DNA of 64,000 nucleotides, from the NCBI GenBank assembly GCA_964593805.1, contig CAZQHP010000001.1:91-64090 (forward strand). The letters run 5' to 3'. Position numbers and translations under genes: made by a program. The notes beneath the pieces are model-generated. The model saw nothing but the letters and a program-made list of their open reading frames with translations, was not told the origin of the DNA and ran no database searches. Numbering within the stretch: the first letter of the stretch is position 1; each line of letters opens with the position of its first letter. The DNA comes from an uncultured Candidatus Saccharibacteria bacterium. Lineage in GTDB: Bacteria; Patescibacteriota; Saccharimonadia; Saccharimonadales; JBBQAJ01. This document shows positions 1 through 52,325 of the stretch, piece after piece.

Positions 1-1199
1 CCAAAAATCGGGCCAGTGATATCCACATAGAACCCATGGAAAAAGAACTAAAAATTCGCTGCCGGATAGATGGAGTACTGCGTGAAATCATGAAACTGCC
101 CAAAGGTACCGAAGCCGCCCTGGTGTCCCGCGTCAAAATTCTCAGCAATCTAAAAATAGATGAGCACCGCATACCGCAAGACGGCCAGTTTACCGTGCAT
201 GTTGCTGGTAAAGACATTGACCTTCGTATCGCCATTTCTCCGGTGGTGTGGGGCGAACAAATCGTGATTCGTTTGCTGGACAAAACGGGAACCAGTCTCA
301 AGCTGGAGGCTATGGGTTACACGGGGCGCGCTTTGCGGGCGATTCGCAAGGGCCTGGAGCAGCCAAACGGCATGATACTCACTTCTGGCCCAACCGGTTC
401 CGGTAAATCCACCTCTTTGTACGCGCTACTGCAAGAAATCGTCAGTGATGAAATAAACATCGTGACGCTGGAAGACCCGGTTGAATACAAAATGCCAGGC
501 ATAAACCAGATACAAGTAAATCCAGACGTAGGACTGACATTTGCTACCGGGCTGCGGTCTATTCTGCGCCAAGATCCAGACGTAGTAATGGTTGGGGAAA
601 TTCGCGACAAAGAAACCGCGCAACTGGCAGTCCAAGCGGCGCTGACCGGTCACTTGGTATTTTCCACGCTGCACACAAACTCGGCGGCCGGAATTTTGCC
701 GCGTTTGCTTGACATGGGCATAGAACCGTTTCTGATTGCCAGCACCGTACATACCGTGATAGGCCAGCGCTTGGTACGCCGTGTCCGGCAGGACGACGGC
801 AAAAAAAGCTACCAGACAGAAAAGACCGAAACCGAAGCCATACACAGTATTCTTGGCCAACTATTGCCGCAAAAAGCAGCAGACATGGCCGCTGTCGCGG
901 AAGATTTAGGCTACAAATCCTTGCCACTTGCCAATGAAAACGCTTATACTTTATTTGAGGGTGCTGATGGAGCGGAAACACCCGGCGGTTACAAGGGGCG
1001 GATGGGGCTGTATGAAGTTTTTGGCGTTACGGAAGCAATCCAGGAACTGATTTTGAACCATTCAACCAGCGGAGACATCCAAAGAGCCGCCCAGGCCGAG
1101 GGCATGATTACCATGCAGGAAGATGGTTATCTGAAGGCTTTGGCAGGTCTTACTACGCTCAAAGAAGTAAACAGGGTGGCCGCAGCCGACAGCGCATAA
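1..1199 (+). CDS. pilB: Type IV pilus / T2SS assembly ATPase (PilB/GspE family), ATPase core and C-terminus. The 5' end is not in the window and no N-terminal domain is attached on this strand.
   Basis: Translation from nt 3 reads ..KNRASDIHIEP... It continues with Walker A GPTGSGKSTS, Asp box LRQDPDVVMVGEIRD and GHLVFSTLHTN. Stop at 1197-1199. Confidence 0.85.
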   Translation, partial: KNRASDIHIEPMEKELKIRCRIDGVLREIMKLPKGTEAALVSRVKILSNLKIDEHRIPQDGQFTVHVAGKDIDLRIAISPVVWGEQIVIRLLDKTGTSLKLEAMGYTGRALRAIRKGLEQPNGMILTSGPTGSGKSTSLYALLQEIVSDEINIVTLEDPVEYKMPGINQIQVNPDVGLTFATGLRSILRQDPDVVMVGEIRDKETAQLAVQAALTGHLVFSTLHTNSAAGILPRLLDMGIEPFLIASTVHTVIGQRLVRRVRQDDGKKSYQTEKTETEAIHSILGQLLPQKAADMAAVAEDLGYKSLPLANENAYTLFEGADGAETPGGYKGRMGLYEVFGVTEAIQELILNHSTSGDIQRAAQAEGMITMQEDGYLKALAGLTTLKEVNRVAAADSA

Positions 1200-1224
1200 T
1201 AATAAAGGATAGGTGGGTATAAAA

Positions 1225-1857
1225 ATGACAGCCGCACAACCGCGAATCGAAATACTACTGGAAGAAGTTATTAAGAAAAAAGCTTCAGACTTGCACCTAC
1301 AAGTCGGCCTGCCCCCAATGCTTAGGGTTGACGGAGCTTTAGGGCCCGTCACGGGAGCAGAAGCGCTGACCGAAGAGACCATAGAAGCGCTGATTTTTGC
1401 CATTTTAGACGAAGATCAGAAACAAATTTTGCTCAAAGACAAAGAGTTTGACTTTAGTTTTGCGTTTGGAGATCTGGGGCGCTTCCGTGTGAACGCGTTT
1501 CATGAACGCGGAAACTTAGCTGCGGCTTTGCGTTTAATCCCCAACGAAATGCTTACCGTGGAGCAGCTAGGTTTGCCACCCATAGTCAATAAATTTGCCG
1601 AATATCCCAGGGGGCTCGTGCTGGTTACCGGCCCGACCGGCTCTGGCAAATCAACCACGCTGGCGGCCATGATACATAAAATCAACCATGAGCGGGCGTC
1701 GCACATCATAACCATAGAAGATCCCATAGAGTTTACCCATAAAAGCCAAAAATCGGTGATTGTACAGAGGGAAGTGCATTACGACACTTACTCTTTTTCC
1801 GCCGCTCTCAGAAGCAGCTTGCGTGAAGACCCGGACGTGGTGCTGATTGGTGAATCT
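1225..1857 (+). pseudogene. pilT: PilT-type twitching-motility ATPase, N-terminal ~211 codons only (truncated at a rearrangement junction)
   Basis: ATG at 1225 follows a purine-rich RBS. ASDLHLQVG, Walker A GPTGSGKSTT and Asp box REDPDVVLIGE are present. After ~1857 the frame reads through antisense pilB N-domain DNA with no PilT similarity (no MRD, Walker B or His box). Confidence 0.75.
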
Positions 1858-4120: not shown

Positions 4121-5160
4121 TCTTGTCTCTCCGCTAGCCCGGCCGCTACGCCAAAGTGGTTAGATAGCGCCAGTAGTTCGTTTTGGCGATCGGCAGAAAA
4201 AGACACATTTCGCCAAGCGTTGCCTATTTCAACGCTAGCGCCGAATTTGTTAGCTATGTACAACGGAAACTCGGGCAAAGCAGATGCGCCGCCCGTTACA
4301 ATAATTCGGTCCAGTTTGGCGTTGTCTCCATAGCGCTTCTGGAAAAACTTTATGGACTTGTCTATTTCTGACATTAGTAAGTCTACTGTGCCAATTATTG
4401 CTTGGTAGATCTGGCCCTCCAGCTTGTCTTTGGACACGCCAAATTTAAATACAAACTGTTCGGCTTGTTTCTGGTCAATGTTTAGGTTTTGCATGGCTGA
4501 TTTTATGATGGCATCGGTACCAGTTGGGATAGAACGCGTCAGGCGTGGCGCGCCGTTCATTGCTACTACCATGTCGGTAGACAAGCTGCCCACGTCCACT
4601 ACCATCTGGGCTGTTGTGGCATCCGGTGCCAGAATTGCCCGGACTAGCGCCAAGTTGTCCGGCTCAAAAGCAATTACATTCAAACCAATTGCTTCCAGCA
4701 TGTCCAGACGTGCTTCCGCGAATTCGTTGCTTACGCTGGTGAGCAGGACCTCTACTTTGTTTTTGTCTGCCGGCGAATCGCCTATCTGAGCCCAATCAAG
4801 CGTGGCGTCCCCGATTGGCGTAGGAATTAGCGATTCGGCTTGGTACTGTATGGTTTTGGCTAGTTCCCCTGGGTCTAATCTGTCAAAATCCGCTACGGTG
4901 GTAAATACGCGCTGCGAAGGTAGACCAACTACAACGTTTCTGGTGGTTATTCGGGCTTGGGAAAGCAATTCTTGGAGATTATCAACCAATTTTTGCTGGT
5001 CTGCCTGCGCGTCAGATTGGGCAATTTTGACATCGATTGGGACGTAACCGTAACGTACCAGGTTTTTTACCGGCCCGCTCCCCTGTAGCTGCACGATTCG
5101 GATAGCAGTAGTGCCAATGTCCAGCCCAAAAAAATCAGATACCCCACTCAGTAGACTCAT
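4117..5160 (-). CDS. pilM: PilM, actin-like ATPase of the type IV pilus assembly platform
   Basis: GLDIGTTAIRIVQL phosphate-1 motif and ..IIVTGGASALPEF.. The ORF-track GTG at 5172 abuts a TATAGT -10 box, so the ATG at 5160 is preferred. Confidence 0.85.
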   Translation of the reverse strand: MSLLSGVSDFFGLDIGTTAIRIVQLQGSGPVKNLVRYGYVPIDVKIAQSDAQADQQKLVDNLQELLSQARITTRNVVVGLPSQRVFTTVADFDRLDPGELAKTIQYQAESLIPTPIGDATLDWAQIGDSPADKNKVEVLLTSVSNEFAEARLDMLEAIGLNVIAFEPDNLALVRAILAPDATTAQMVVDVGSLSTDMVVAMNGAPRLTRSIPTGTDAIIKSAMQNLNIDQKQAEQFVFKFGVSKDKLEGQIYQAIIGTVDLLMSEIDKSIKFFQKRYGDNAKLDRIIVTGGASALPEFPLYIANKFGASVEIGNAWRNVSFSADRQNELLALSNHFGVAAGLAERQE

Positions 5161-5297: not shown

Positions 5298-7625
5298 TTA
5301 TAGGATGGGTGGCAAGCTGGTGATGGCATCGTAGCCGGCGTTGCCGCCAGGAGTACAGCTTTCTGATATGGCACACGGTGTTGCCAACCAGGTAGCTGGC
5401 GAGGCGTTGAATGTTTCGGCAGGAGTATTTGCACTCAAAGTGCCAATGCTACGGTAAAGTTTTAATTCCTTTGCAATAAACGCGCCTTTTACGGTAAGCG
5501 TGGATTTGCAAATAGTATTAAGTTCGTTTGTAGCATTTGGTGGCCGCCAAGTATTAGGAAGAAGATCGGGAAACGCGCAGGTGTAAATCTTCCCTCTGTT
5601 GCCCGCACTATCCGGTTGTGCCACGTACACGCCGTCCAATTGCGAAACTCCGGGTGCAATGTATATATTACCCTTTACCACTAGGTAGAAATTGGGCATA
5701 TCGTCAATGGTTGTAGCTCCACCAGCAAGCTTTATATTTCCCGCTATGTAAGCATCGCCGTTGACATAAATTATCGGACGTTTTCCTAATGCTATCGGCG
5801 GAGTTCCAAACGGTGTTGTTATAGTTAGCGCACCATTTGAAAACCATGCCGTTTTAGTATCGATTGTCCCAGATGCGATTGTTAATACTATGGGATCGGG
5901 AGTAACGTTCTTGAGTGTGTCGTAATAATCAGTAGGGCACGGTATTATGCCATCCGCCAAGGAACCCCCAAACAATGACCCAAAAAGAATCGTATTTGCA
6001 AAACTAAGACCAATTGGGGGAGAAGGATTTGTACGATTTTGGGCACTCGCTATGCCGTTTATTAAACCCCGTGAAAATGTAGCAAGATTGGTACCTGCAC
6101 CTATATTCGGATTTGTTACTTGATTCCAAGATGTCAATACTGGACTAGCTATCCCAGCTCCCCAGCCAGTACAGCCCGCAATCGGAATACCAGCGGCTAC
6201 ATCCCCGTTTCTGGCTATAAAGAAAGGTTTGCTGACGACATTAAAACTAACCGTGCCCGGACAAGAAATGGATCCAGCGTTGCCGCCGCTAACATTCCAG
6301 TCAATCGTATAGGTGCCGGCAGTATTGGCAACTATGGAACCCGACGTAACGTTTACGCTTGAACCTCCCGCAATATCCGGTATGGTAATGTTTGACTGCG
6401 GCGAACCAGAGGTAGGCAGAGGCGAAACCGTCAAACTAGCTTTACCGCCGGTGTATGTCACGGCAGTACTGGGTGAGTTGCTTATGTTCACTGTACTAGT
6501 GAAAGCCTGGCCAATTTCCGGCGACGATGGACTTATACTCACAAGATTACAACTTACGGTAGGCGCTGGGGGTGGGGGCGTACAGTTCTGATCAAAGTTA
6601 ATACTATCGTATGGCAGCTGGAACTGTATGCCATTCCGGCTTTTTACGCCTAAAAGCTCCCATTCGTACCGTTTGCCTGGTTGTACGGTAATTGTTTTGC
6701 TGTCCGCAACTCCATTACCTCCTGTCAGCGGCCAAAAATTTACAGGCGTTCTGACCCCGGTAGATGAAACTTCATATAGAATTGTGGCTATTGTGTTTGG
6801 ATTGCCACTTGTGTCGGTCTGGTTGCTTACGCCAGCATCGGCATCAAACCATGAAATATCAACTGGAGTAGGAACTTTTACGCTACACGAAGGAGCAAAC
6901 TGCAAACGCATATCTGCCCAACGGTCTGGGTCTAGCCACAACTGACCCAGCGCGAACTTATTGGTAGAACCGGCATAATAACTCAGTTTGTCTTGTGCTT
7001 GGGCAGTTATACTAAAACCATTGATACCATTCACAAACCCGTTATTTTGAGCTCGAATATAAGCAACGCGGTAGCCCTCATGCCCGGGAACAGCTGAAGG
7101 TGTTAAGCTACTCATGTTTAAGGTAATGGTGGGATCTCTGTAAACACTTGGGTTTGGATTATTGCAGTCTAATCCAGCGTTTCCAAAAAATGTCAGTGGC
7201 GCCGACATGGCTTCACTTGATGCTGCAGAACCTGCCGTTGCAGAAAAGAAAATAAATGCCGTATCTGGAAATTCCCTGGGCGCCCCGGCCAGGCTATCTA
7301 TATTCACACCCGGCGGAGAAAAGTTGTTTGGACACCAAGCCGCGTTGTTTATGCGAACTGTCACTTGTGATCGGCCATCGTCTTTTACAAAAAGCTTCAC
7401 GGTGGCTTCCGGCGCATCCAGCGCGTAATTGGCTCCAGCAGCCGCAACTGAAAGATACACATCGCCAACCTGAGTTGACGTCCCTATGTTTGTAAATTGC
7501 CCCGAGGGCACGTCTGGTAGTTTATTTGTAGCGGCTGATGCTTTGGACCCGGGGATAAACAAAAACGTAGTCACAAAAAAAGCCAAAAACAAAGTGTAGC
7601 GTTGGTATTTTTTAGGCAAAATCAT
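5298..7625 (-). CDS. Large secreted protein (775 aa), Gly/Asn/Thr/Ser-rich, pilus-operon associated; function unknown
   Basis: Signal-peptide-like N-terminus (..LFLAFFVTTFLFIPGSKASA). Start abuts the stop of the upstream TPR gene. It lies directly upstream of pilM. Confidence 0.7.
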   Translation of the reverse strand: MILPKKYQRYTLFLAFFVTTFLFIPGSKASAATNKLPDVPSGQFTNIGTSTQVGDVYLSVAAAGANYALDAPEATVKLFVKDDGRSQVTVRINNAAWCPNNFSPPGVNIDSLAGAPREFPDTAFIFFSATAGSAASSEAMSAPLTFFGNAGLDCNNPNPSVYRDPTITLNMSSLTPSAVPGHEGYRVAYIRAQNNGFVNGINGFSITAQAQDKLSYYAGSTNKFALGQLWLDPDRWADMRLQFAPSCSVKVPTPVDISWFDADAGVSNQTDTSGNPNTIATILYEVSSTGVRTPVNFWPLTGGNGVADSKTITVQPGKRYEWELLGVKSRNGIQFQLPYDSINFDQNCTPPPPAPTVSCNLVSISPSSPEIGQAFTSTVNISNSPSTAVTYTGGKASLTVSPLPTSGSPQSNITIPDIAGGSSVNVTSGSIVANTAGTYTIDWNVSGGNAGSISCPGTVSFNVVSKPFFIARNGDVAAGIPIAGCTGWGAGIASPVLTSWNQVTNPNIGAGTNLATFSRGLINGIASAQNRTNPSPPIGLSFANTILFGSLFGGSLADGIIPCPTDYYDTLKNVTPDPIVLTIASGTIDTKTAWFSNGALTITTPFGTPPIALGKRPIIYVNGDAYIAGNIKLAGGATTIDDMPNFYLVVKGNIYIAPGVSQLDGVYVAQPDSAGNRGKIYTCAFPDLLPNTWRPPNATNELNTICKSTLTVKGAFIAKELKLYRSIGTLSANTPAETFNASPATWLATPCAISESCTPGGNAGYDAITSLPPIL

Positions 7626-8234
7626 CTAGAATTGCCCCGTTTCTTCTACCGCCTTAGGGAATGTGGCATCGTATTTTTGCTGGTATTCATCAGCGGTTTT
7701 GGTATCACCAATTTCCTTAGCAATTGTTATGATAGTTGAGTATTGCAAAGGATTGTTGGCAGACTTTAGTGTATCCAAAAGCGCTTGTCCCGTTTTGTTC
7801 GTTTCGTCCTTATCGCCAGCTGCTTTATACGAGTTGTACAGTCCCCGCAGTATAGAACTTTTTAGTTTGTCTATATTATAGGTCTGTGCTTTTTTAAACG
7901 TGCTTATTGCTTCAGTATGCATATTCCTGTGCTGGTAGCTTAAGCCAAGGTCAAGATAAGTTGCTGCTGCAACATCTGACGGAGTGTTGGAATCAATCTT
8001 GACCGCTTCCAGCTGGGTCAATATTTCGTCTTTTGCCACCGGTTTTCTTGAATCTTTTTGCGCATTGTGATTAAAAACAGCACCCGTAGTAACAAGTACA
8101 AGTAAAACTACCGCTACCAAAAAAGCCTGGTTGCGGGTGAGTTTATTTAACCGGACGTGTTTGACTCTAGAAAATAGCGTGGGCTTCAAATCCCCTGTCA
8201 CAACATCGCTATTGATCGTTTTCTTGTGCTTCAT
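7626..8234 (-). CDS. Membrane-anchored TPR-like protein
   Basis: TM segment FLVAVVLLVLVTTGAVF followed by helical repeat-like sequence (..LGLSYQHRNMHTEAISTFKKAQ..). Confidence 0.55.
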   Translation of the reverse strand: MKHKKTINSDVVTGDLKPTLFSRVKHVRLNKLTRNQAFLVAVVLLVLVTTGAVFNHNAQKDSRKPVAKDEILTQLEAVKIDSNTPSDVAAATYLDLGLSYQHRNMHTEAISTFKKAQTYNIDKLKSSILRGLYNSYKAAGDKDETNKTGQALLDTLKSANNPLQYSTIITIAKEIGDTKTADEYQQKYDATFPKAVEETGQF

Positions 8235-8383: not shown

Positions 8384-8662
8384 TTATCCGTTGTCTGGTT
8401 TTGCCGGTACTGGAGTAGTAGGATTGTCTGGAGTCAAAATTACTCCGTCTTGACCAATATTGGCTTCGCTTGGGGGTGCAATTGTGGTTGTGATTTCAAT
8501 TGTCGAAGTCGATGGTTGTACTGGTGTGGGCTCGCCCGAATCACGCATTAAATTAAAACCTGCCAAAGCCGCCACCCCCGCAACCGTAGCTATTGCTGCA
8601 CGACCACGGGTAACGCGCGGTATTATATTGGCTATTCCAGATTCGTTTGCTGTGTTAGACAT
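8384..8662 (-). CDS. Small membrane-anchored Pro/Thr-rich protein, unknown function
   Basis: ATG at 8662 (MSNTANESG..). The ORF-track GTG at 8698 lies inside the promoter -10 box, so it is rejected as the start. TM segment AAIATVAGVAALAGF. Confidence 0.5.
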   Translation of the reverse strand: MSNTANESGIANIIPRVTRGRAAIATVAGVAALAGFNLMRDSGEPTPVQPSTSTIEITTTIAPPSEANIGQDGVILTPDNPTTPVPAKPDNG

Positions 8663-8689
8663 TTTAGTATTTACCAATTTACAATACTC

Positions 8690-8717
8690 ATTATACACGA
8701 ATTGCTGTTTTTGTCAA
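8690..8717 (-). promoter_or_regulatory. Sigma70-type promoter, TTGACA-N16-TATAAT
   Basis: Reverse complement reads TTGACAaaaacagcaattcgtgTATAAT, about 27 nt upstream of the ATG at 8662. Confidence 0.6.
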
Positions 8718-11476: not shown

Positions 11477-12568
11477 ATGAGTTTATCAATCGGGATTGTC
11501 GGGTTGCCAAATGTCGGTAAGTCTACGCTGTTTAATGCGCTGACAGACGGTGATATTCTGGCTGCCAATTATCCTTTTGCAACCATTGAACCAAATACTG
11601 GCATTGTGCCCATACCAGACGAACGGCTGCAAAAACTGGCAGATGTATACAAGACAAAAAACATCGTCCCCGCGACGGTTACATTTGTAGACATTGCCGG
11701 CCTGGTTGCCGGCGCCAGCCAAGGCGAAGGCCTGGGCAACCAATTTCTAGCAAATATTCGTAGTTGCAATGCCGTCTGCCATGTTGTCCGAGCTTTTACG
11801 GACGATAATGTCCTGCATGTTGACGCCAAACATAATCCTCAGAAAGATATCGAGGTTATTAATACCGAGCTGGCGCTCGCGGACCTCCAGACCGTAGAAA
11901 AACGCTTGCCCCAAAGCGAAAAAATGGCCAAAGCTGACCCCAAACTCAAGCCCCAGGTAGATGCACTTCTCTGGGCACGAGATATCCTAAACGACAGCGT
12001 GCCTTTATTTGCAGCTCCCTCACGACTTGCAGCTCACGACTTGCTTCTTCAGGAGCTTCAGCTCCTGACGGCAAAGCCGACTATATATTTATTTAACGTA
12101 GATGAAGAAACGCTGGCCGATGACGCCAAAAAATCTCAGCTGGCTCAGCTAGTCGCACCTGCGGAAGCAGTTTTTGTCTGTGCAAAGTTAGAAAGCGAAC
12201 TAAAAAGCCTGGACACTGCAGACCGCGTAGAATTGCTAGGCAGCTATGGGGTTCAAGAATCCGGGCTGGTCCAATTAACCCACGCCGCCTACGATACGCT
12301 CGGCCTGCAGAGTTTTCTGACTGCCGGCGAAAAAGAAGTCCGGGCCTGGACAATCCCAAAAAGTGCAACCGCTCCGCAAGCCGCCGGCGTAATTCATGGC
12401 GATTTTGAGCGCGGCTTTATAGCCGCCCAAATTGTAGATTATGATGACCTGATAACGGCTGGTTCAGAAGCGGCCGCTAGGAGCTCTGGCAAAGTACGCA
12501 CCGAAGGCAAAGATTACGCAATGCGCCCCAACGATGTAGTAGAATTCCGTTTCAACGTATCAAAATAG
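11477..12568 (+). CDS. ychF: Ribosome-binding ATPase YchF
   Basis: GIVGLPNVGKSTLFNALT P-loop, ..VDIAGLV.GAS.GEGLGN.FL.., and a C-terminal TGS-like ..DFERGFI.A.. Confidence 0.95.
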   Translation: MSLSIGIVGLPNVGKSTLFNALTDGDILAANYPFATIEPNTGIVPIPDERLQKLADVYKTKNIVPATVTFVDIAGLVAGASQGEGLGNQFLANIRSCNAVCHVVRAFTDDNVLHVDAKHNPQKDIEVINTELALADLQTVEKRLPQSEKMAKADPKLKPQVDALLWARDILNDSVPLFAAPSRLAAHDLLLQELQLLTAKPTIYLFNVDEETLADDAKKSQLAQLVAPAEAVFVCAKLESELKSLDTADRVELLGSYGVQESGLVQLTHAAYDTLGLQSFLTAGEKEVRAWTIPKSATAPQAAGVIHGDFERGFIAAQIVDYDDLITAGSEAAARSSGKVRTEGKDYAMRPNDVVEFRFNVSK

Positions 12569-12620
12569 CTGTTAGCTGTTAGCTGTTAGCTGTTAGCTGT
12601 TAGCTGTTAGCTGTTAGCTA
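12567..12620. repeat. Tandem heptanucleotide array (AGCTGTT) x7.7 filling the whole convergent intergenic spacer
   Basis: Direct reading. The array begins within the ychF TAG stop and ends 2 nt before the stop of the convergent gene at 12623. Confidence 0.97.
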
Positions 12621-12622
12621 CA

Positions 12623-13297
12623 TTATAGTTTTACAGTTACGGAATTTATATCCCAGTTCATGCTGATGTTGCGGATAATTTTTAGAGCGTCATTGTGTCC
12701 CGGTATGTTGTTTTCTTCGTAGTAATGGTCGCTTTCCATCAAATTTTCCGTTACGCTCAGGCAATAAATTTCGTCTCCAACTAAATGCATCCGGTCCACG
12801 GCATTTATGCTGGCTATCGGCGTGGCTATTATAAGTTTTTTAACCTTGGTCGGTTTTAGAAAGTCGGCGGCGACTTCCAGCGAAACACCACTCTGAAGCG
12901 CGTCAGAAACCAATATAACTACATGGTGCCTCAAAAATTTGGGATCTATTTCTCCCCCGTCGCTTAACAGTTTGTTGAGTTCATGAAATTTCTCAACCCG
13001 CTGGTCTTCAATCATGCCGTGATATTCGCTGACAAACTCGTCTATTTCCCCCTGGGAAAGTTTTTGGTTATAGGTAAGGGTGTTGGTGGTCATAGAAGCA
13101 AGCGGTTCGGTTTCGCCTGGCAGGATTATATTGTCGCTCAAAAGTACCATAAGGTTGGCGTGCAGCCGCATGGCAATCTGCGCGCCTACCAGCACCCCGC
13201 CGCTGTTAAGCGCCACCACTGCGCATTGTTCGCTTTTGTATCTTTTTAGCTTCAGCGCCAATTGGCGCCCGGCCTCGGCCCGATTTTTGAAATACAT
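12623..13297 (-). CDS. Phosphoribosyltransferase-family protein
   Basis: MYFKNRAEAGRQLALKL..AVVALNSGGVLVGAQIA.. matches the putative-PRTase pattern. The ATG at 13297 sits 6 nt after a TATAAT box. Confidence 0.65.
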   Translation of the reverse strand: MYFKNRAEAGRQLALKLKRYKSEQCAVVALNSGGVLVGAQIAMRLHANLMVLLSDNIILPGETEPLASMTTNTLTYNQKLSQGEIDEFVSEYHGMIEDQRVEKFHELNKLLSDGGEIDPKFLRHHVVILVSDALQSGVSLEVAADFLKPTKVKKLIIATPIASINAVDRMHLVGDEIYCLSVTENLMESDHYYEENNIPGHNDALKIIRNISMNWDINSVTVKL

Positions 13298-16023: not shown

Positions 16024-16058
16024 AGCTATCAGCTGTCAGCTGTCAGCTCTTAGCTAGT
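16024..16058. repeat. Degenerate tandem heptamer array (AGCTNTC-like) x5
   Basis: agctatc agctgtc agctgtc agctctt agctagt, between the ssb stop and the efp start. Confidence 0.9.
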
Positions 16059-26894: not shown

Positions 26895-27614
26895 TGTTTT
26901 GGAGAAATCTATCTCTGTTGGTGACTGTGCATATGATACGTCAAATTCGCCTACTTGGGTGCGGCGGAGGGCGGTCATGTAGGCGCTAGTTCCTAGTTCT
27001 TTGCCTATATCTTCTACCAAACTGCGGATATACGTGCCGGAAGAAACTTTGGCGGTGAATTTCACCTCTGGATATGCATAATCCACATCAGAAATGCTGT
27101 AAATCGTCACCCTTCGAGGCTCAAGCACCACTTCTTTGCCCTCTCTGGCTAATTTGTAAGCCCGTTGGCCATTTACTTTGACGGCGCTGAACTTGTGCGG
27201 CGTTTGCATGATTTCGCCCTGGAACGACCCCAAGACTGCCATAAAAGCTTTTTCTGATGGTTTTTCACCAGATACAATGGTCTTTTCACCCTCTTCATCG
27301 CCAGTTGTGCTGGTTTGGCCCAGTTTCATAGTCACTTCGTATACTTTGTCTAGTTTGCTAAACTCATGCGCCCGTTTGCAGTAACTGCCAAGGAGAATTA
27401 CCAAAAGTCCGGTTGCGAGCGGATCCAGAGTGCCGGCGTGGCCAACCTTCACCTTCCGTGAAGGAGTACTGAGTCGAGAGTCCTGAGTCGAGAGTTTTTC
27501 GCTCCGTACTCCGTACTCTGTACTCTGTGACTGGCGCAAAAGTCCCCTGACTTTTGCGACTACGTCAAACGACGTCCAGCCAGACGGCTTATCAATCAGT
27601 AAAATTCCATCCAC
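26880..27614 (-). CDS. truB: tRNA pseudouridine-55 synthase TruB, with a repeat-encoded insertion
   Basis: GTG start. GILLIDKPSGWTSFDVV.. and catalytic ..GHAGTLDPLATGLLVILLG. An extra ~21-24 aa lies between these motifs. Confidence 0.92.
   Translation of the reverse strand: MDGILLIDKPSGWTSFDVVAKVRGLLRQSQSTEYGVRSEKLSTQDSRLSTPSRKVKVGHAGTLDPLATGLLVILLGSYCKRAHEFSKLDKVYEVTMKLGQTSTTGDEEGEKTIVSGEKPSEKAFMAVLGSFQGEIMQTPHKFSAVKVNGQRAYKLAREGKEVVLEPRRVTIYSISDVDYAYPEVKFTAKVSSGTYIRSLVEDIGKELGTSAYMTALRRTQVGEFDVSYAQSPTEIDFSKTLTNK
27469..27531. repeat. 7-nt-periodic tract inside truB (9 units, 63 nt)
   Basis: ctgagtc gagagtc ctgagtc gagagtt tttcgct ccgtact ccgtact ctgtact ctgtgac. It encodes ..SQSTEYGVRSEKLSTQDSRLS.. 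Confidence 0.9.
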
Positions 27615-29834: not shown

Positions 29835-29860
29835 GCTTTTTATAAGACCAGTGTCGCAAC

Positions 29861-30325
29861 GCACGCTTCGCTCGCTTAAACCATACTTTTTGGTCAGCAA
29901 AAAGTAAGCAAAAACTGACGCCATGGGCTGCGAAACGTGACTGAATCATCTACCATGCATATGAGGCGCCAGCAGAATAGCGACTTCGTAGTTCTTTGGG
30001 ATTACTCACGTATGCTGCTGGCTCTACTCCTCATATACCTGAGATGATGCAATCAGTTTCTTGAATGGCGGGAACAAGCAGAGCCCCGCAAGCGAGCCAA
30101 ATCTATAATCCGCCGGAGGCGGATACCTTGGAGGCTTCTCAGACTCTGGAGGTTCCTGAAAAGCGTAGTGTCAAAGCTACCATTTGAGAGAGGAGTCCAC
30201 CGCGGCGGACGACGAGCATGGTAGCGCTTGACGACGAAGCTTATCAAGAACTGGAAGGGCTGTCATTTCTTTGGTTACTTTCTTGTTGACACAAGAAAGT
30301 AACTCAGCAACTGAGCCGAACGCGC
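29861..30325. ncRNA. Copy A of a two-copy ~465-nt non-coding, helix-rich element (candidate structured RNA or non-autonomous mobile element; class unknown, strand undetermined)
   Basis: Aligns with 45531-46005 in conserved blocks separated by non-homologous but self-complementary segments. No conserved ORF. It lies between the convergent rpsT and holA stops. Confidence 0.55.
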
Positions 30326-30338
30326 GCGTGAATGTGCT

Positions 30339-31252: not shown

Positions 31253-32161
31253 TCACGCCTTTTGGCATTTGGGGCAAGTGTGGGTGCCGCGGCCGGCTAC
31301 TCGAGTCTTTGTAATTATTGTACCGCAGCGTGGACACTCTTGACCCTCACGGCGGAATACACGCGCAAAACTGAGGTAGCTGCCCTTTTTGCCTTCCGCA
31401 TTCACATAATTTCTATCTGTTGAACCGCCTTTTGCTATAGCTAGATTTAGGACAAATTGAAGTTTGGTAAATAATTTGTATATTTTGACTTTGGAAAGAT
31501 TTTTTACCAATGTAGCCGGGTGGATTTTGGCGTCCCATAGGCTTTCGTCGGCGTATATATTGCCTACGCCCGCTATCACGGTTTGGTCCAAAAGTGCGGC
31601 TTTAATATTTGTATTCGGCCGGCGTAAAAGCCGCTCCTGAAAGGCTTTTTTGGTAAAATCAGCAGCCAATGGCTCGGGTCCAACGCGTCTAAAAAAGTCT
31701 ATGTTTGGCACCTCGATGGTGGGCAAAAGTTTCATCCAGCCAAATTTGCGCTGGTCGTTGAAGAAAAGTTCGGAGCCGTCTGTGAAGGTAATAATTACCC
31801 TAGTTGATTTGTCGGGTAAGCCTCCGACCAAAGATTCACTCGGGTGTCCAGCCCCAAACCTTTCTTCAGCTGTCAGCTGTCCGCTACTAGCTGTTAGCTT
31901 GTGCGCTTCGCGCACATAAACCATTTGTCCGGTCATTTTGAGATGACTCACGAGTGTGTGTCCGGAAGACAAATCAATGAGCAATATTTTTGCACGCCGC
32001 CGGACACCAATGATTTTGGAACCCACCAAAAACGCCTTTACGTCCGCCTCAGCGTTTGGAAATGATTTGGCCCAGTCGTGCGTAATGCCAGCAATGGCCT
32101 TACCAATAACAAATTTATTTAGTCCTGTTCGGACCGTTTCAACCTCAGGTAGTTCTGGCAT
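31253..32161 (-). CDS. mutM: Formamidopyrimidine-DNA glycosylase (Fpg/MutM), with a repeat-encoded insertion
   Basis: MPELPEVETVR N-terminus, H2TH region, and C-terminal zinc finger CPRCG...CPKCQ. Confidence 0.93.
   Translation of the reverse strand: MPELPEVETVRTGLNKFVIGKAIAGITHDWAKSFPNAEADVKAFLVGSKIIGVRRRAKILLIDLSSGHTLVSHLKMTGQMVYVREAHKLTASSGQLTAEERFGAGHPSESLVGGLPDKSTRVIITFTDGSELFFNDQRKFGWMKLLPTIEVPNIDFFRRVGPEPLAADFTKKAFQERLLRRPNTNIKAALLDQTVIAGVGNIYADESLWDAKIHPATLVKNLSKVKIYKLFTKLQFVLNLAIAKGGSTDRNYVNAEGKKGSYLSFARVFRREGQECPRCGTIITKTRVAGRGTHTCPKCQKA
31867..31901. repeat. Tandem heptamers inside mutM
   Basis: cagctgt cagctgt ccgctac tagctgt tagcttg. It encodes ..HKLTASSGQLTAE.. Confidence 0.9.
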
Positions 32162-37823: not shown

Positions 37824-40534
37824 TACAATTCGCCCCAGTTTTTGCCGGTGGTGGCGTCTACGGTTAGCTTTACAGGGAGTTTGTGGACGTTTTCCATGGT
37901 GTCTTTGAGTAGTTTGGCGGTCGCTTCGGCTTCTTTTTCATCACATTCTACAATTAGGGAGTCATGAATTTGCAGCAGAATGCGAGCTTCTCCCGCAGGA
38001 GCAGGAAGTAAGGAGTAGGAAGAAGGGTGGGCTGTATTTTTGCCTTGCTCCTTGCTCCTTGCTCCTTGCTCCGCAAAAGCATCTAGCTTTTGCTGGACGT
38101 GAACCATGGCTAGTTTCATGATGTCGGCCGCTGTTCCCTGGAACGGCACGTTTACGGCGGCCCGTATAGCGGATTCTCGTACGACGAAGTTGCTGGAGTG
38201 CACGTCTGGCGTGGGGCGGCGTCGGCCAAACAGCGTTTCCACGTAGCCGTCTTTGCGCGCCTGCTCTTTGACGGATTCTATGTAGCCCAACAGTTTAGGA
38301 CGGACTTCAAAGTATTTGTCTATAAAGTGCTTGGCTTGTTCGTATGTCATGCCGGTAGCGGCTACCAAACCGTGCGTGCTTAGGCCGTACATGACACCAA
38401 AATTCACTACTTTGGCATCGCGGCGCATATTTTTGGTCACGTCTTGCTCTTCTCTGTCATAAATCAGCGCCGCGGTGGCAGTATGGACGTCTACGTCGCG
38501 GTTAAACATGTCTATCAGGTTGTCGTCTCCGCACAAATAAGCCGCCAGGCGCAGTTCAAACTGGCTGTAGTCGGCGCTAACCAGCATTTTGCCCGGTCCG
38601 GCTACAAAAGCCGTACGGATTTGCCGGCCCAGATCTGTTTTGACAGGAATGTTTTGGAGGTTCGGGTCATTGGAACTCAGCCGGCCAGTTTGGGCTACTG
38701 TGAGCGCAAAGGTGGTATGGACGCGGGAGTTTTCGTCTACCATAGTCGGCAAAGTATCTACGTAGGTGTTTTTGAGCTTGGTGACTTCGCGGTACTGAGT
38801 TATGAAATCAATAATTGGGTGCGCTTCCCGCAGTTTGACCAGTTCGCTGGCGGCGGTTGAATAACCGGTTTTGCCTTTTTTGATATTGGCAGTAGGCAAA
38901 TTTAGTTTGTTGAACAATATATCTGCCAGCTGGGCTGGAGAGGCTATGTTAAACTCTTGGTCGGCGTAGCCGTAAATTTGTTGTTCAAGGTCGGAAACGG
39001 CGTCATTTAACTGTTCTGCCATGAGCCCTAGGTAGTTGGTATCCAGCTGTATGCCTTCGTATTCCATGCGCGCCAGCACGGGGATAACTGGAAATTCAAT
39101 GTCTTTGGCCAGCTTGGCAACTTTTGGCATACCAGCCAGATCTTTCGCTTGCTCCTTATGTAACATGGCGATTAAACCGATAATTTCTGATCCTCTTGCC
39201 GCGTATTCTTCGGTACTTAAATCTTCTATTGAACCCTCGAAACCAATGTCTTCAGCAGCGAGAGTTTGCAAAGAAACTTCTCTACGCAAGCTATTTATAA
39301 GGAAAGCGCCAACCATCACATCGTGCTCCACGTGCGGCAGCTTTATGCCCAGTCCAATCAGTACTTTCAAGGTGTTCTTTATGTCGTAGCCAATAACAGA
39401 GTTAAGGGTTGAGAGCAGAGGGTTGAGAGCTTTAGCCGATACCTTTGAAAGATCAATAGCGTATGTTTTCTTTCCATCCTTGCTTACAAGTAATATCAGA
39501 GGATTTTGACCGTGTTTACCAGCGGAGCGGCTGTCTATAAAAATGTTTTTTGCGTCTTTAAGATCAAGTTTTGCCAAATCAGCATCGCTGCTAATCAAAC
39601 TGCTGGCGCTGCCATTGTGCTCAAATACATTTCGTTCTTTATGTTGCTCTTGCAGCTGCATTATATCCGGCAGTTGGCGGACTAGGCTGCGGAATTCCAG
39701 TTTTTGCAAAATGTCACGGATGCGTTCGGGGTGGGCTTTGGTGCCGTCTACTTCTTTCAGGTTCAGTTTTATGGGCGCATCTGTCCATATGCTGGCCAGT
39801 TTTTTACTCAGGTACGCCATGTCTTTGCCAGCTTCTAATTTTTTGCGAGTAGTTTCTTTTATCAGCACCAGATTTTCATACACTTTGTCTAGTGTGCCGT
39901 ACGCTTTAAGCAATTCAATCGCACCCTTTTCGCCTATTCCAGGCACCCCAGGGATGTTGTCTGAACTATCGCCTTTTAGCGCTTTTAGATCCAGAAACTG
40001 TGAAGCGTTTATGCCGTATTTGGCCTCAAAACTTTCCGGATGAAACAGTTCTATGTTGCTGAGTCCTTTTTTAAGTGCATATACGCTCACGTGCCAGTCA
40101 ACCATCTGCAACATATCTAAATCAGACGTTACGAGCATGGTCTCAATGTCTTTTGAGGTTGCTTGTATAGCAAGAGTCCCCATAATGTCATCGGCCTCAT
40201 AATCATCCAGCTCATATAAAGGCCAGCCAAAAGCATCTAACAGGTCATGAAGTATAGGAATTTGTTCATAAAAATCTGGCGGCGGCGGTTTGCGCCCGGC
40301 TTTGTACTCAGGGTACAGTTCCAAGCGTTTGCGAATGTTGGTTTTGGGCTTGTCCCACGCCACGCAGACATAATCCGGCTTGAGACGTTTTATAACTTCT
40401 AGCGCCATAGTGGCAAAACCAAACACGCCGCCAGTGGGTGTACCGTCTTTGGTACTCAGATTTGGCATGGCATAGTAACCACGGTAAAAGACTGACTTGC
40501 CATCAATAATCGCTAGTTTTTTGCGCTCCGCCAT
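37823..40534 (-). CDS. polA: DNA polymerase I
   Basis: 5' nuclease domain (..DNIPGVPGIGEKGA..), a 3'-5' exo-like region, and polymerase motifs ..DYSQFELR.., ..RRDAKVVNFG..YG.., ..QIHDSLIVE.. Confidence 0.95.
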   Translation of the reverse strand: MAERKKLAIIDGKSVFYRGYYAMPNLSTKDGTPTGGVFGFATMALEVIKRLKPDYVCVAWDKPKTNIRKRLELYPEYKAGRKPPPPDFYEQIPILHDLLDAFGWPLYELDDYEADDIMGTLAIQATSKDIETMLVTSDLDMLQMVDWHVSVYALKKGLSNIELFHPESFEAKYGINASQFLDLKALKGDSSDNIPGVPGIGEKGAIELLKAYGTLDKVYENLVLIKETTRKKLEAGKDMAYLSKKLASIWTDAPIKLNLKEVDGTKAHPERIRDILQKLEFRSLVRQLPDIMQLQEQHKERNVFEHNGSASSLISSDADLAKLDLKDAKNIFIDSRSAGKHGQNPLILLVSKDGKKTYAIDLSKVSAKALNPLLSTLNSVIGYDIKNTLKVLIGLGIKLPHVEHDVMVGAFLINSLRREVSLQTLAAEDIGFEGSIEDLSTEEYAARGSEIIGLIAMLHKEQAKDLAGMPKVAKLAKDIEFPVIPVLARMEYEGIQLDTNYLGLMAEQLNDAVSDLEQQIYGYADQEFNIASPAQLADILFNKLNLPTANIKKGKTGYSTAASELVKLREAHPIIDFITQYREVTKLKNTYVDTLPTMVDENSRVHTTFALTVAQTGRLSSNDPNLQNIPVKTDLGRQIRTAFVAGPGKMLVSADYSQFELRLAAYLCGDDNLIDMFNRDVDVHTATAALIYDREEQDVTKNMRRDAKVVNFGVMYGLSTHGLVAATGMTYEQAKHFIDKYFEVRPKLLGYIESVKEQARKDGYVETLFGRRRPTPDVHSSNFVVRESAIRAAVNVPFQGTAADIMKLAMVHVQQKLDAFAEQGARSKEQGKNTAHPSSYSLLPAPAGEARILLQIHDSLIVECDEKEAEATAKLLKDTMENVHKLPVKLTVDATTGKNWGEL
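37994..38070. repeat. 7-nt-periodic tract inside polA ending in (CCTTGCT) x4
   Basis: ..gcaggaa gtaagga gtaggaa gaagggt .. ccttgct ccttgct ccttgct ccttgct. It encodes ..EQGARSKEQGKNTAHPSSYSLLPAPAGEA.. just upstream of polymerase motif C. Confidence 0.85.
39405..39432. repeat. 14-nt (2x7) direct repeat inside polA
   Basis: agggttgagagca gagggttgagagct. It encodes ..KALNPLLSTLNS.. Confidence 0.8.
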
Positions 40535-45519: not shown

Positions 45520-45530
45520 AACCTCTTAGC

Positions 45531-46005
45531 GCACACCTCGCTTGCTTAAACCATACTTTTTGGTCAGCAAAAAGTATGCAAAAACTGACGCCATGGGCCG
45601 CGAAACATGATTGTCCCCATAACCAGCCAACTGCTGCGCCGAAACGACTAAAGGCCCAAACTTTTATTTGGGATCAGTTTGGACGAGTTCCGGCTTGATT
45701 CAGCAGTTGTCTGAATGAGTGCATCAGTTTCTTGAATGGCGGGAACAAGCAGAGTCCCGCACCGCGGGACAAATTAAATAATCCGCCTATGGCGGATGCC
45801 ATGGTCTTGTTCAGGCTCTGGAAGTTCCTGATGACGGAGTTGTTAAAACTACCATTAGAGTGAGGAGTCCGCCGCGGCGGATGACGAGTATGGTGGTTTT
45901 GACAATGGAGACATCAAGAACTGGAAGTGGCTGTCGCTCTTTTTGCATACTTTTTCTTCGACAAGAAAAAGTATGGCGGGAAGTCCGCTGTGGCGGACGC
46001 CGAAA
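45531..46005. ncRNA. Copy B of the two-copy ~465-nt non-coding helix-rich element
   Basis: Homologous blocks shared with 29861-30325. It lies between the convergent stops of the 44815 gene and the yjbR-like gene. It has terminal hairpins with identical stems, CATACTTTTT/AAAAAGTATG. Confidence 0.55.
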
Positions 46006-46011
46006 CTGTCT

Positions 46012-50672: not shown

Positions 50673-52325
50673 CTACATCCTGTCTGGCGCGGGAATGTTG
50701 AGAAGTTCCAGACCGCTTTTTAGCGTGTCGGCATAAGCTTGAACTAAATTCAAACGGACAGCTTGGCGCGGGTCGTCCAGCACGCGGTTGTTTTCATAAA
50801 AACGGTTAAAAACCTGCGCTAGTTCGTATAAATACGTGCAGACATGATGCGGCATGAGTTCCTGTACTGCCCTGTCCACCACCTCTGTATATTCACCAAT
50901 CTTCCTTAGCAGGCTTCTTTCATCCTTTTGGAGTTTTTCTGAAGACTTTGGACTTTGGACTTTGGACTTAGCGAGAATACTTCTCGCCCTGGCGTGCGCG
51001 TACTGCAGGTACGGCCCGCTGTTGCCCTCCAGTGCCACTGATTCTGCCGGATCGTAAATGACGTCTCCGCCCATGCGATTTTTTAATAGTGCGTATTTGA
51101 CTGCCGCCAGCGCCGTAGTTTCGTCGTCTTTGCCAGTAGTTTTTTGGTTGGCCGCGCGAGCCGCGTCAATCACATCAATGGCGCGCAGTATGTTGCCCTT
51201 GCGGCTGCTCATTTTCACACCGCCAGCCAGTTTCACCATGCCGTGAGTTAGGTGCGTAGTGGCTGTTGACAATTCAGGTGCGAATTGCTCAATCGCTTTT
51301 AACACCACAGCCATGTACTGGGCTTGTTCGTTGCCGGTTATGACGACTGATTTGTCAAAGTTGTAGTCGCGCTTTTTGGCCACAATCAGCCCCACATCTT
51401 TGGCTTCGTAGGTTGGCAAACCTTCGGAGTTTACAAAAACGCGAGTGTGCAAATCATGGTCTTCGCCTTTGAACACAATTGCGCCCTCCGACTCCACGAA
51501 AACATCTGGAATGTGCTCTTTAACAGTTTGGACCCCCAGCTCTGCGACTTCGCTTTCCGGGTAGTATTTTTCAAAACTACTGCCTATGCGCTTATAGAAT
51601 TCGTCGAAATAGTCATAGCTCCACTGCCGGCATGTCCAATATATTTGCGCAAACGCAGATTCTTTGTCGCCGTCTGCGTGCAGCTGGTATACGCGTTTAT
51701 TCAGTGTGGTAATTTCGGCCTTTGCGGCTTCGTTTTCATCGTAAGCAGTCGTACCTTCTATGTAAGCCTTGGTCAGCCATTCGGCATGGTTTTCAATCGC
51801 CTTGAGCCCGTCTGGATTTTCACCGCCGAGCTCTCGCAAAATGGCCCACATGGTTTTGCCAACGTGCAGACCAACATCGCCGCCAAAGTTCACGCGGTGG
51901 ACTTTGGCTCCGGCCGCTTCCAACAAAGATGCTATCCCGTCCCCCACCACGGAGGTATACAAATGGCCAGCATGCAGGACTTTGAATGGGTTCGGGTCGG
52001 AATATTCCGCTACGACTTCTTTGCCTGCCAAGACGCGCATTGGCTTCTGAGCCGCAAGCTTAGTCAGAGCTGCGTCTGTCAACGTTAAATTTATAAACCC
52101 CGGGCCAGCGATATCTGCGGACACAATGCTGGGATGTTTCAGAGCCGATTTAAGGGTTTCGGCAACTTCGCGCGGGTTTTTATCCAGCCGTTTGCCCAAC
52201 TGAAGGGCAACGCTGGTAGCGTAATCGCCGAATTGCTCGTCGGGGCGCGTCAAATCCACCTCAACGTCAACGTTGAACAATTCTTTGCACGCCCCCGCGA
52301 TTGCCTGCTCCAGTTCTTGCCTCAT
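50673..52325 (-). CDS. argS: Arginine--tRNA ligase, with a repeat-encoded insertion
   Basis: ..YSDPNPFKVLHAGHL.. (HIGH-type), ..MSSRKGN.. (KMSK-type), and a C-terminal DALR anticodon-binding region. Confidence 0.95.
   Translation of the reverse strand: MRQELEQAIAGACKELFNVDVEVDLTRPDEQFGDYATSVALQLGKRLDKNPREVAETLKSALKHPSIVSADIAGPGFINLTLTDAALTKLAAQKPMRVLAGKEVVAEYSDPNPFKVLHAGHLYTSVVGDGIASLLEAAGAKVHRVNFGGDVGLHVGKTMWAILRELGGENPDGLKAIENHAEWLTKAYIEGTTAYDENEAAKAEITTLNKRVYQLHADGDKESAFAQIYWTCRQWSYDYFDEFYKRIGSSFEKYYPESEVAELGVQTVKEHIPDVFVESEGAIVFKGEDHDLHTRVFVNSEGLPTYEAKDVGLIVAKKRDYNFDKSVVITGNEQAQYMAVVLKAIEQFAPELSTATTHLTHGMVKLAGGVKMSSRKGNILRAIDVIDAARAANQKTTGKDDETTALAAVKYALLKNRMGGDVIYDPAESVALEGNSGPYLQYAHARARSILAKSKVQSPKSSEKLQKDERSLLRKIGEYTEVVDRAVQELMPHHVCTYLYELAQVFNRFYENNRVLDDPRQAVRLNLVQAYADTLKSGLELLNIPAPDRM
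50944..50971. repeat. Tandem heptamers (GACTTTG) x3 plus one degenerate unit inside argS
   Basis: gactttg gactttg gactttg gacttag. It encodes ..KSKVQSPKS.. Confidence 0.95.

Follow-up and report, generated by a model that had tools for sequence, protein, structure and literature searches.

The subject of this analysis is a tandem array of a seven-nucleotide unit, AGCTGTT, in a 64,000-nucleotide stretch of an uncultured Candidatus Saccharibacteria genome (contig CAZQHP010000001.1, assembly GCA_964593805.1), which we call the window. The array occupies almost the entire spacer between ychF and a convergent phosphoribosyltransferase (PRTase)-family gene. The nearest homologues of the YchF and TsaD proteins encoded in the window come from Saccharibacteria/Saccharimonadales, and no tRNA gene and no Rfam match at gathering score was found anywhere in the 64 kb. 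The locus comprises the following features:

11477–12568, + strand: ychF, ribosome-binding ATPase (open reading frame (ORF); Pfam PF06071 YchF-GTPase_C, E 3.9e-35, and PF01926)
12566–12619, no strand: heptanucleotide array (TAGCTGT)x7.7 (Tandem Repeats Finder); 4.7 copies in ENA contig ERZ27284378:k139_508325
12623–13297, − strand: PRTase-family gene (Pribosyltran PF00156, E 2.7e-08), 224 amino acids as called; the longest ORF extends to 13330

Tandem Repeats Finder describes the 54-nt array, equivalent to (AGCTGTT)n, as matching its consensus at 100% with no insertions or deletions (indels) and a score of 108. Its opening three bases are the TAG stop codon of ychF (12566–12568), YchF homologues terminating at the same residue, and its final base sits 3 nt short of the PRTase stop TAA (12623–12625), with an A at position 12620 that breaks the unit. 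The stop-to-stop spacer (12569–12622) is also 54 nt long and consists of 51 nt of repeat and a terminal, non-repeat ACA. An earlier note on this DNA had placed the array at 12567–12620 and called the spacer nothing but repeat; the array is indeed there, one base further to the left, and the description holds for all but those last three bases. Translation of the six frames bore out the same note's observation that the array presents TAG in every forward frame and TAA in every reverse frame, with two to three of each per frame. Shuffled sequences predict 0.01 matches to the pattern AGCT-N3-AGCT-N3-AGCT and the window contains 12, which excludes a chance origin of such arrays here.

Comparison with a second, independent assembly shows that the array changes length within a strain. 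A 776,748-bp ENA contig, ERZ27284378:k139_508325, recovered around five window genes, encodes exactly the same YchF and carries 4.7 copies of the unit where the window carries 7.7, a 21-nt difference of three units. Aligned stretches of 7.1 kb and 22 kb contain no mismatch and only this gap inside the AGCTGTT array, and everything else matches at 100% apart from a 1.85-kb inversion at the left edge of the window and one base in its junction. The array indel is thus one of only three differences over 64 kb of one strain and the sole change in repeat length. Eight other heptamer arrays, all shorter (2.9–4.7 copies), are the same in both assemblies, as expected if instability grows with array length. 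We attach no meaning to the indel being exactly three units, which may be coincidence in an intergenic array. The earlier note had suspected a slippage-prone element, to be doubted should copy number prove invariant and the motif be absent elsewhere; copy number differs between two assemblies of the same strain, and AGCT-core arrays lie at other loci in the window. The array behaves as a slippage-prone microsatellite.

This comparison draws on two assemblies, the only ones found to carry this exact ychF, at the level of contigs and not of inspected reads, and the ychF flank appears at none of the Joint Genome Institute (JGI) metagenome matches listed for (AGCTGTT)3.6 (at least 120 loci), so further alleles did not emerge there. 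The difference, or the array length itself, could accordingly be an assembly artefact at a fixed, inert one-off duplication. Two Logan contigs from SRR8863434 match k139_508325 wherever they overlap it, and the Logan assembly (k=31) ends a contig 41 nt ahead of the array; the inversion in the window's source assembly, joined at an 11-nt microhomology and splitting two pilus ATPase genes, looks like a possible misjoin. However, a perfect array stands at the identical place in both assemblies, and at 33 and 54 nt the two arrays fit within both the k=139 words of the ENA assembly and a typical read, which should have allowed direct reading of each allele. Other arrays of the AGCT family exist and are identical between the assemblies, and similar copy-number turnover is seen at a Gemmatimonadales rpoC locus described below. 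We consider an artefact very improbable.

The inversion deserves a description of its own. Window positions 1–1854 (L005 15772–17669) run in the opposite orientation in the ENA contig and in a Logan contig of the same strain, with an imperfect 11-nt inverted repeat, (G/A)ATTGGTGAATC, at the junction (~1843–1854), in which the sole single-base difference of the 64 kb also falls (1845, G/A). It cuts a pilB-like gene and the adjoining pilT-like T2SSE ATPase gene, and is either a real variant or a misjoin in the source assembly of the window.

Relatives of the window strain indicate how the array may have arisen. In the closest relative found (L088, YchF 86% identical), ychF and the PRTase gene are convergent with a spacer of only 3 nt (...AAA TAG CCG TTA GCG...). 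The spacer reads AAATAGCCGTTAGCG, within which TAGCCGTTAGC matches TAGCTGTTAGC, or 1.6 units of the array, at 10 of 11 positions; this 11-nt proto-repeat (TAGCcGTTAGC) is nothing other than the ychF stop, three bases and the reversed PRTase stop. A relative with 78% YchF identity has a repeat-free 13-nt spacer, and one at 80% lacks the PRTase gene. More widely, a gene convergent to ychF lies within 7 nt or overlaps at 6 of 17 other Saccharibacteria loci drawn from GTDB, and the other convergent stop-to-stop spacers in the window gene table measure −11, −8, −4, 3, 6, 8, 21, 492 and 504 nt. These distances show that a terminator-sized spacer behind ychF is not the ancestral state, nor a typical one.

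We propose that the ancestral stops of ychF and the PRTase gene nearly abutted, as TAG-CYG-TTA-GC, a state modelled on the relative, and that this arrangement would by chance have yielded an 11-nt, 1.6-copy proto-repeat (TAGCYGT TAGC). In a lineage with a general excess of period-7 tandem duplication, the proto-repeat may then have grown to five to eight units, the array itself creating the spacer. The spacer would be all repeat because almost no spacer existed before, and the stops in all six frames would be inherited from the seed, because the unit holds the stop triplets of both genes (TAG, and TTA, which is TAA on the other strand). Because AGCT is self-complementary, the array can fold back on itself, which probably promotes slippage. 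Such slippage cannot affect the two proteins, whose reading frames close at the array edge or ahead of it. We conclude that the array is probably a young, hypermutable heptanucleotide microsatellite made by replication slippage.

Several observations weigh against that conclusion. Four of about 12 arrays in the genome share the unit AGCTGTY, and (AGCTGTT)n is 4–20 times commoner in viral contigs than control heptamers of the same composition, neither of which pure slippage from random seeds explains. In degenerate units beside perfect arrays the AGC(T) core is retained and variation falls at position 5 (chi-square p 5e-35). The array forms a fairly stable predicted RNA hairpin on the ychF strand, and the relative L089 bears a different heptad-built palindrome in the same two slots, ychF 3′ and ssb–efp, that hold AGCT-core arrays in the window. 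Finally, the copy-number difference comes from two assemblies with reads uninspected, one of them bearing the odd inversion, which leaves some room for an assembly effect. These points bear on rival explanations that we consider in turn.

The predicted fold is the basis for one of these, namely that the array is a functional hairpin: a bidirectional terminator, a transcriptional insulator or an mRNA-stabilising 3′ structure resembling repetitive extragenic palindromic (REP) elements, in which AGCU cores pair into a long imperfect stem that stops or protects the converging transcripts. Folded with its flanks, the + strand gives −30.7 kcal/mol (z −2.5) and the − strand −19.1 kcal/mol (z −1.4); the 7.7-copy array alone gives −26.6 and −14.5 kcal/mol, and the 4.7-copy allele −12.2 and −6.2 kcal/mol. 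Pairing is predicted between AGCU cores with G-U, U-U and U-G oppositions between them, so that each unit adds four Watson–Crick pairs and G-U/U-U to the stem. AUUUUG directly follows the last AGCU on the − strand; the + strand has a UUUU 13 nt downstream. The preferential retention of the AGC(T) core in 443 degenerate units, and the arrays paired with an inverted copy around a loop or GC hairpin at many metagenome loci, would also suit a structural role. Measured against an intrinsic terminator, with its GC-rich stem of at least 5 bp, short loop and U-run directly after, the array has no such stem, and a U-run adjoins it only on the − strand. A terminator consensus scan returned nothing at 12566–12622, in agreement with the earlier note, which had seen no GC-rich hairpin with a U-tract, and a promoter scan found no promoter-like site in the array. 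Moreover, the two nearest relatives with the ychF–PRTase pair have no array; convergent genes that follow ychF closely or overlap it are frequent in Saccharibacteria, and such tight spacing occurs throughout this genome; and copy number, and hence stem length and energy (about −12 versus −27 kcal/mol), is not constant.

The rpoC 3′ end of Gemmatimonadales bears on the same question. There, an array of the same unit follows the stop codon and precedes a separate, canonical terminator (GGCGCCCGGGAGCGATCCCGGGCGCC and a T-run). Two contigs with 98% identical RpoC (L159 2374–2431 and L299 ~6043–6150) carry (AGCTAAC)n in about 9 versus about 14 units, and in contigs at 96% and 95% RpoC identity (L301 and L300) the array is absent and the terminator kept. 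Judged by this comparison, the array at Gemmatimonadales rpoC is not the terminator and turns over quickly. In L300 a weak NNAGGCT heptad pattern occupies the rpoC 3′ end instead of the array. Flanking genes give no sign of a preferred position either: crude ORF maps around about 120 (AGCTGTT)n arrays among the matches listed yield orientations of −/− 30, −/+ 21, +/− 21 and +/+ 18, which is what would be expected of intergenic DNA at large. A transcription-strand bias in co-directional contexts was considered and dropped, 30 versus 18 not being significant.

Hairpins at comparable positions occur in two further relatives. L089 (GCA_034680565.1, YchF 80%) carries ~110-nt palindrome copies in three intergenic regions within 14 kb (4408–4531, 7902–8025 and 8503–8711), each built as (NTCAATG)x3–4, an AT-rich loop and (CATTGAN)x3–4, in the ychF 3′, efp–ssb and ssb–S18 spacers. 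L089 also has a Y1_Tnp (IS200/IS605-type) gene beside ychF, with another hairpin, TTCCAAGGACCGTCCTTGGAA, flanking that gene. In L090 the ssb–efp spacer holds an ordinary hairpin. The recurrence of structures in the ychF 3′ and ssb–efp slots could be read in favour of a functional hairpin; the coincidence is weak because few spacers are available in such compact genomes.

Taken together, the comparative data argue against a required function for the array, and a functional hairpin is in our judgement unlikely. The fold may incidentally hinder converging transcription or RNA decay at the junction, with a strength that would shift with copy number, and nothing in the data supports selection for such a side-effect. 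Of the roles the earlier note had suggested, those of an insulator and of a protein-binding array are both unsupported, given the absence of the array in the nearest relatives that keep the ychF–PRTase pair, the short convergent spacers, the separate Gemmatimonadales terminator and the derivation of the stops from the seed.

The choice of unit is harder to accommodate. Within the window, AGCT recurs at 7-nt spacing at 12567 (eight times), 16024 and 63023 (five times each) and, interrupted, at 31868, and it is the only 4-mer to recur at least four times at this spacing at more than one locus; imperfect arrays keep AGCT and vary in the following three bases. A scan of JGI metagenome contigs for (AGCTGTT)3.6 found (AGCTGTT) at 3.6 or more copies in at least 120 contigs of GC 0.29–0.68, with up to 17 copies among the matches listed, of which one is Gemmatimonadales by its RpoC. 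In viral contigs, an (AGCTGTT) 25-mer has 21 stretches, compared with 2 for AGTCGTT, 0 for ATGCGTT, 1 for ACGTGTT, 5 for TGCAGTT, 4 for AGCTGTC and 1 for AGCTCTT, six control heptamers of the same or related composition, several of the viral matches coming from related contigs; the published heptamer TAACTGA has 54. Across 443 degenerate in-phase units, mismatch rates along the unit are A.19, G.10, C.17, T.25, G.49, T.30 and T.38, a pattern unlike that of TAACTGA arrays, which decay roughly evenly across positions. Phage-like contigs L216, L222, L223, L230 and L231 are arranged as array, GC hairpin and inverted array.

Two simple explanations for this preference were rejected. Stops in all six frames are not the selected feature, as AGTCGTT also stops every frame and has 2 viral stretches against 21, and the T that the two stop triplets have in common is one of the most poorly conserved positions, with 38% mismatch. 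Nor will just any heptamer with a palindromic core expand, given the low counts for ACGTGTT (1), TGCAGTT (5), AGCTGTC (4) and AGCTCTT (1). Since controls with these properties are rare, neither stop content nor a palindromic core alone explains the preference.

A more specific explanation is that AGCTGTT-type heptads belong together as a sequence-specific family, with a dedicated factor that recognises or produces them: a DNA/RNA-binding protein, an AGCT-specific enzyme or a copy mechanism, for example. The ychF array would then be one member of a dispersed system. The four loci in 64 kb, the spread over metagenome contigs of very different GC content including Gemmatimonadales, the viral excess over palindrome-core and stop-containing controls and the position-specific mismatches are all consistent with this idea. 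However, no candidate protein has come forward and no conserved flanking sequence is visible among the metagenome loci listed; arrays of the family are found within tsaD and fpg as well, and protein binding is an improbable reason for an array in coding sequence; the ychF array has a local seed in L088; unrelated heptamer units co-occur in the same genomes; and the control scans are few, with viral matches partly from related contigs. We regard a dedicated factor as quite improbable. A broader form of the idea is that AGCTGTT/AACAGCT heptads are a distinct cross-phylum class of intergenic element that recurs through a specific mechanism or function, beyond random microsatellite birth. The class would span Saccharibacteria, Gemmatimonadota, contigs of other organisms (GC 0.29–0.68) and phage-like contigs, and be marked by an AGC(T) core, a free fifth position and frequent inverted copies. 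We hold this to be unlikely; if true, candidate mechanisms would be unit-specific slippage or copying, or a hairpin or protein-binding role in RNA or DNA, and the ychF array would be the first recognised instance in a genome of the candidate phyla radiation (CPR).

Repeats elsewhere in the ~75 kb examined of the 777-kb genome (the window and nearby contig sequence) also favour replication slippage as the origin of the ychF array. Exact arrays of at least 2.5 copies in the 64 kb number six for period 7 and zero to one for each of periods 4–6 and 8–13, and three further period-7 arrays lie in 4.7 kb of the same contig past the window. By contrast, 18 other Saccharibacteria loci from GTDB (300 kb) hold six period-7 arrays, five of them in one locus, and actinobacterial loci hold one in 1.16 Mb; the AGCT-N3 x3 pattern is absent from 334 kb of other Saccharibacteria loci. 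Heptamer richness as a general Saccharibacteria trait was rejected on these counts, and the period-7 excess is, on the loci compared, lineage-specific. A cluster of five heptamer arrays stands at the contig end of another Saccharibacteria metagenome-assembled genome (L063 15664–15985; AGGTTAA, AAGGTTG, CCTGTTC x6.9 and CCTGTTT), which suggests that assemblies break at such arrays. The other repeats of the window are as follows:

2452–2484, no strand: (CCGCTGA)x4.7 intergenic array upstream of the 5′ part of pilB
12019–12044, no strand: period-14 repeat CTCACGACTTGCAG x1.9 inside ychF
16024–16058, no strand: AGCT-N3 array AGCTATC AGCTGTC AGCTGTC AGCTCTT AGCTAGT, most of the ssb–efp spacer from the ssb stop onwards; − strand genes
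27464–27528, no strand: two adjoining heptamer arrays, GAGTACT/GAGTCGA and CTCCGTA, in truB
31868–31902, no strand: imperfect AGCTGTC/AGCTGTT heptad array in an fpg-like coding sequence (− strand), around amino acids 93–99
38043–38072, no strand: (CCTTGCT)x4.3 in polA (− strand), amino acids 821–831
50944–50969, no strand: (GACTTTG)x3.7 in argS (− strand), amino acids 453–461
63023–63057, no strand: AGCT-N3 array AGCTAAC AGCTTAC AGCTGAC AGCTGAC AGCTATA in tsaD (+ strand)

Four of nine arrays are intergenic (2452, 5218, which is weak, 12566 and 16024), an enrichment given the small intergenic fraction of this tightly packed window, and the five in coding sequence, which lie in frame within essential housekeeping genes, avoid in-frame stops. 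The truB arrays fall at the site of a 26-residue insertion that is missing from the solved TruB structure 1sgv, and the tsaD array contributes to a loop that exceeds its counterpart in the solved Thermotoga TsaD structure 6nak by 16 residues. That all coding-sequence arrays are recent was rejected in the case of tsaD, whose array is old: the insertion is common to homologues down to ~77% identity, and the closest relative shows 95% DNA identity across the array versus 80% over the whole gene. Inside ychF, where the window has the period-14 repeat, L088 (3770–3795) has (CTCACGA)x3.7 of equal length, and comparison of the two suggests that units there were homogenised or replaced without an indel. 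Two convergent pairs, rpsT/holA (~29835–30338) and an unnamed pair (~45520–46011), enclose ~500 nt without a called gene, tRNA or Rfam match, which is unusual for so tightly packed a genome.

Heptameric simple sequence repeats (SSRs) are in excess in many bacterial genomes, including those of Burkholderia, Xanthomonas, cyanobacteria and actinobacteria, and polymerase slippage has been proposed as the cause, 7 nt corresponding to the length that the polymerase grips (Mrazek, Guo and Shah 2007, described in PMC4679880 and PMC4692102). The ychF array shares with these long SSRs head-to-tail 7-nt units exceeding chance length, a dominant period of 7 over periods 5–11 in the ~75 kb examined, a mostly intergenic placement, a proposed origin by slippage, and length variation between close relatives, with 7.7 versus 4.7 copies in one strain and none in the 86% and 78% relatives; it differs in its host, a member of the Saccharibacteria/CPR. 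The earlier note had tied heptamers to cyanobacteria, which is too narrow given their occurrence in many bacteria, and had thought them unreported for CPR genomes; we likewise found no report of heptanucleotide repeats in Saccharibacteria, and no paper naming AGCTGTT or its rotations as a repeat unit.

Other heptamer families fit the array less well. Short tandemly repeated repetitive (STRR) heptamers form dispersed tandem arrays in Calothrix and Nostoc (cited in PMC4692102). Like them, the arrays described here are dispersed and intergenic, fall into several unit families per genome and have no assigned function. The STRR1–3 units are CCCCAGT, TTGGTCA and CAACAGT, and the ychF array departs from these in its unit (AGCTGTT/AACAGCT) and in its host, which is no filamentous cyanobacterium but belongs to another phylum, has a genome below 1 Mb and carries arrays inside housekeeping genes. 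Direct repeats of TAACTGA are known from Beggiatoaceae, cyanobacteria and Bacteroidetes, for the most part immediately ahead of a start codon, and have been put forward as translational regulator sites (MacGregor 2015, PMC4679880). AGCTGTT resembles TAACTGA as a single heptamer in short arrays across unrelated phyla, with stop codons in the unit and similar viral abundance; unlike the TAACTGA sites, found a few nucleotides upstream of a start, the window array lies between two stop codons, and AGCTGTT arrays are without positional bias and have a self-complementary core. The G-rich GGGNATC/GGGGAYT heptamers of Xanthomonas and Nostoc form G-quadruplexes (Rehm et al. 2015, PMC4692102). Like AGCTGTT, they combine a conserved core with one degenerate position, are intergenic, sometimes occur as inverted pairs where two genes converge, and vary extensively in length from one close species to the next. 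AGCTGTT itself cannot form a G-quadruplex and has mismatched hairpin potential instead.

Two functional categories were also compared. Intrinsic terminators and REP palindromes share with the array a gene 3′-end position and hairpin potential, but the array has no GC-rich stem and no adjacent U-run on the ychF strand, is unconserved in length and is absent from the closest relatives. No gene for a REP-associated tyrosine transposase (RAYT/Y1_Tnp) is among those called across the window, in which self-complementary AGCT-core arrays stand at four loci. The phase-variation microsatellites of host-adapted pathogens lie in a reading frame or between promoter elements, where a change in units switches a gene. 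The array is like these contingency loci in being hypermutable by slipped-strand mispairing and in differing in copy number within a strain; it differs in lying in neither a coding sequence nor a promoter, both genes ending at or outside its edge (the PRTase stop 3 nt beyond), so that a unit change alters neither protein. The array thus has the hallmarks of a heptanucleotide long SSR and lacks those of an intrinsic terminator, a contingency locus, an STRR element (in unit and host) and the TAACTGA 5′-untranslated-region class.

For annotation, the ychF–PRTase spacer is best recorded as a hypervariable microsatellite and should not be labelled a terminator or regulatory site without transcript data; the array is usable as a strain marker for this Saccharibacteria population. 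What remains of interest is the cross-phylum preference for AGCTGTT, which the slippage account leaves unexplained, and the presence of arrays within the housekeeping genes of a reduced genome. A CPR-type genome of less than 1 Mb shows the period-7 excess previously described for large-genome bacteria and cyanobacteria, and its heptamer arrays, at loop insertions of TruB and TsaD and inside PolA, ArgRS and Fpg, constitute a compact system in which to ask why seven is a favoured slippage unit.

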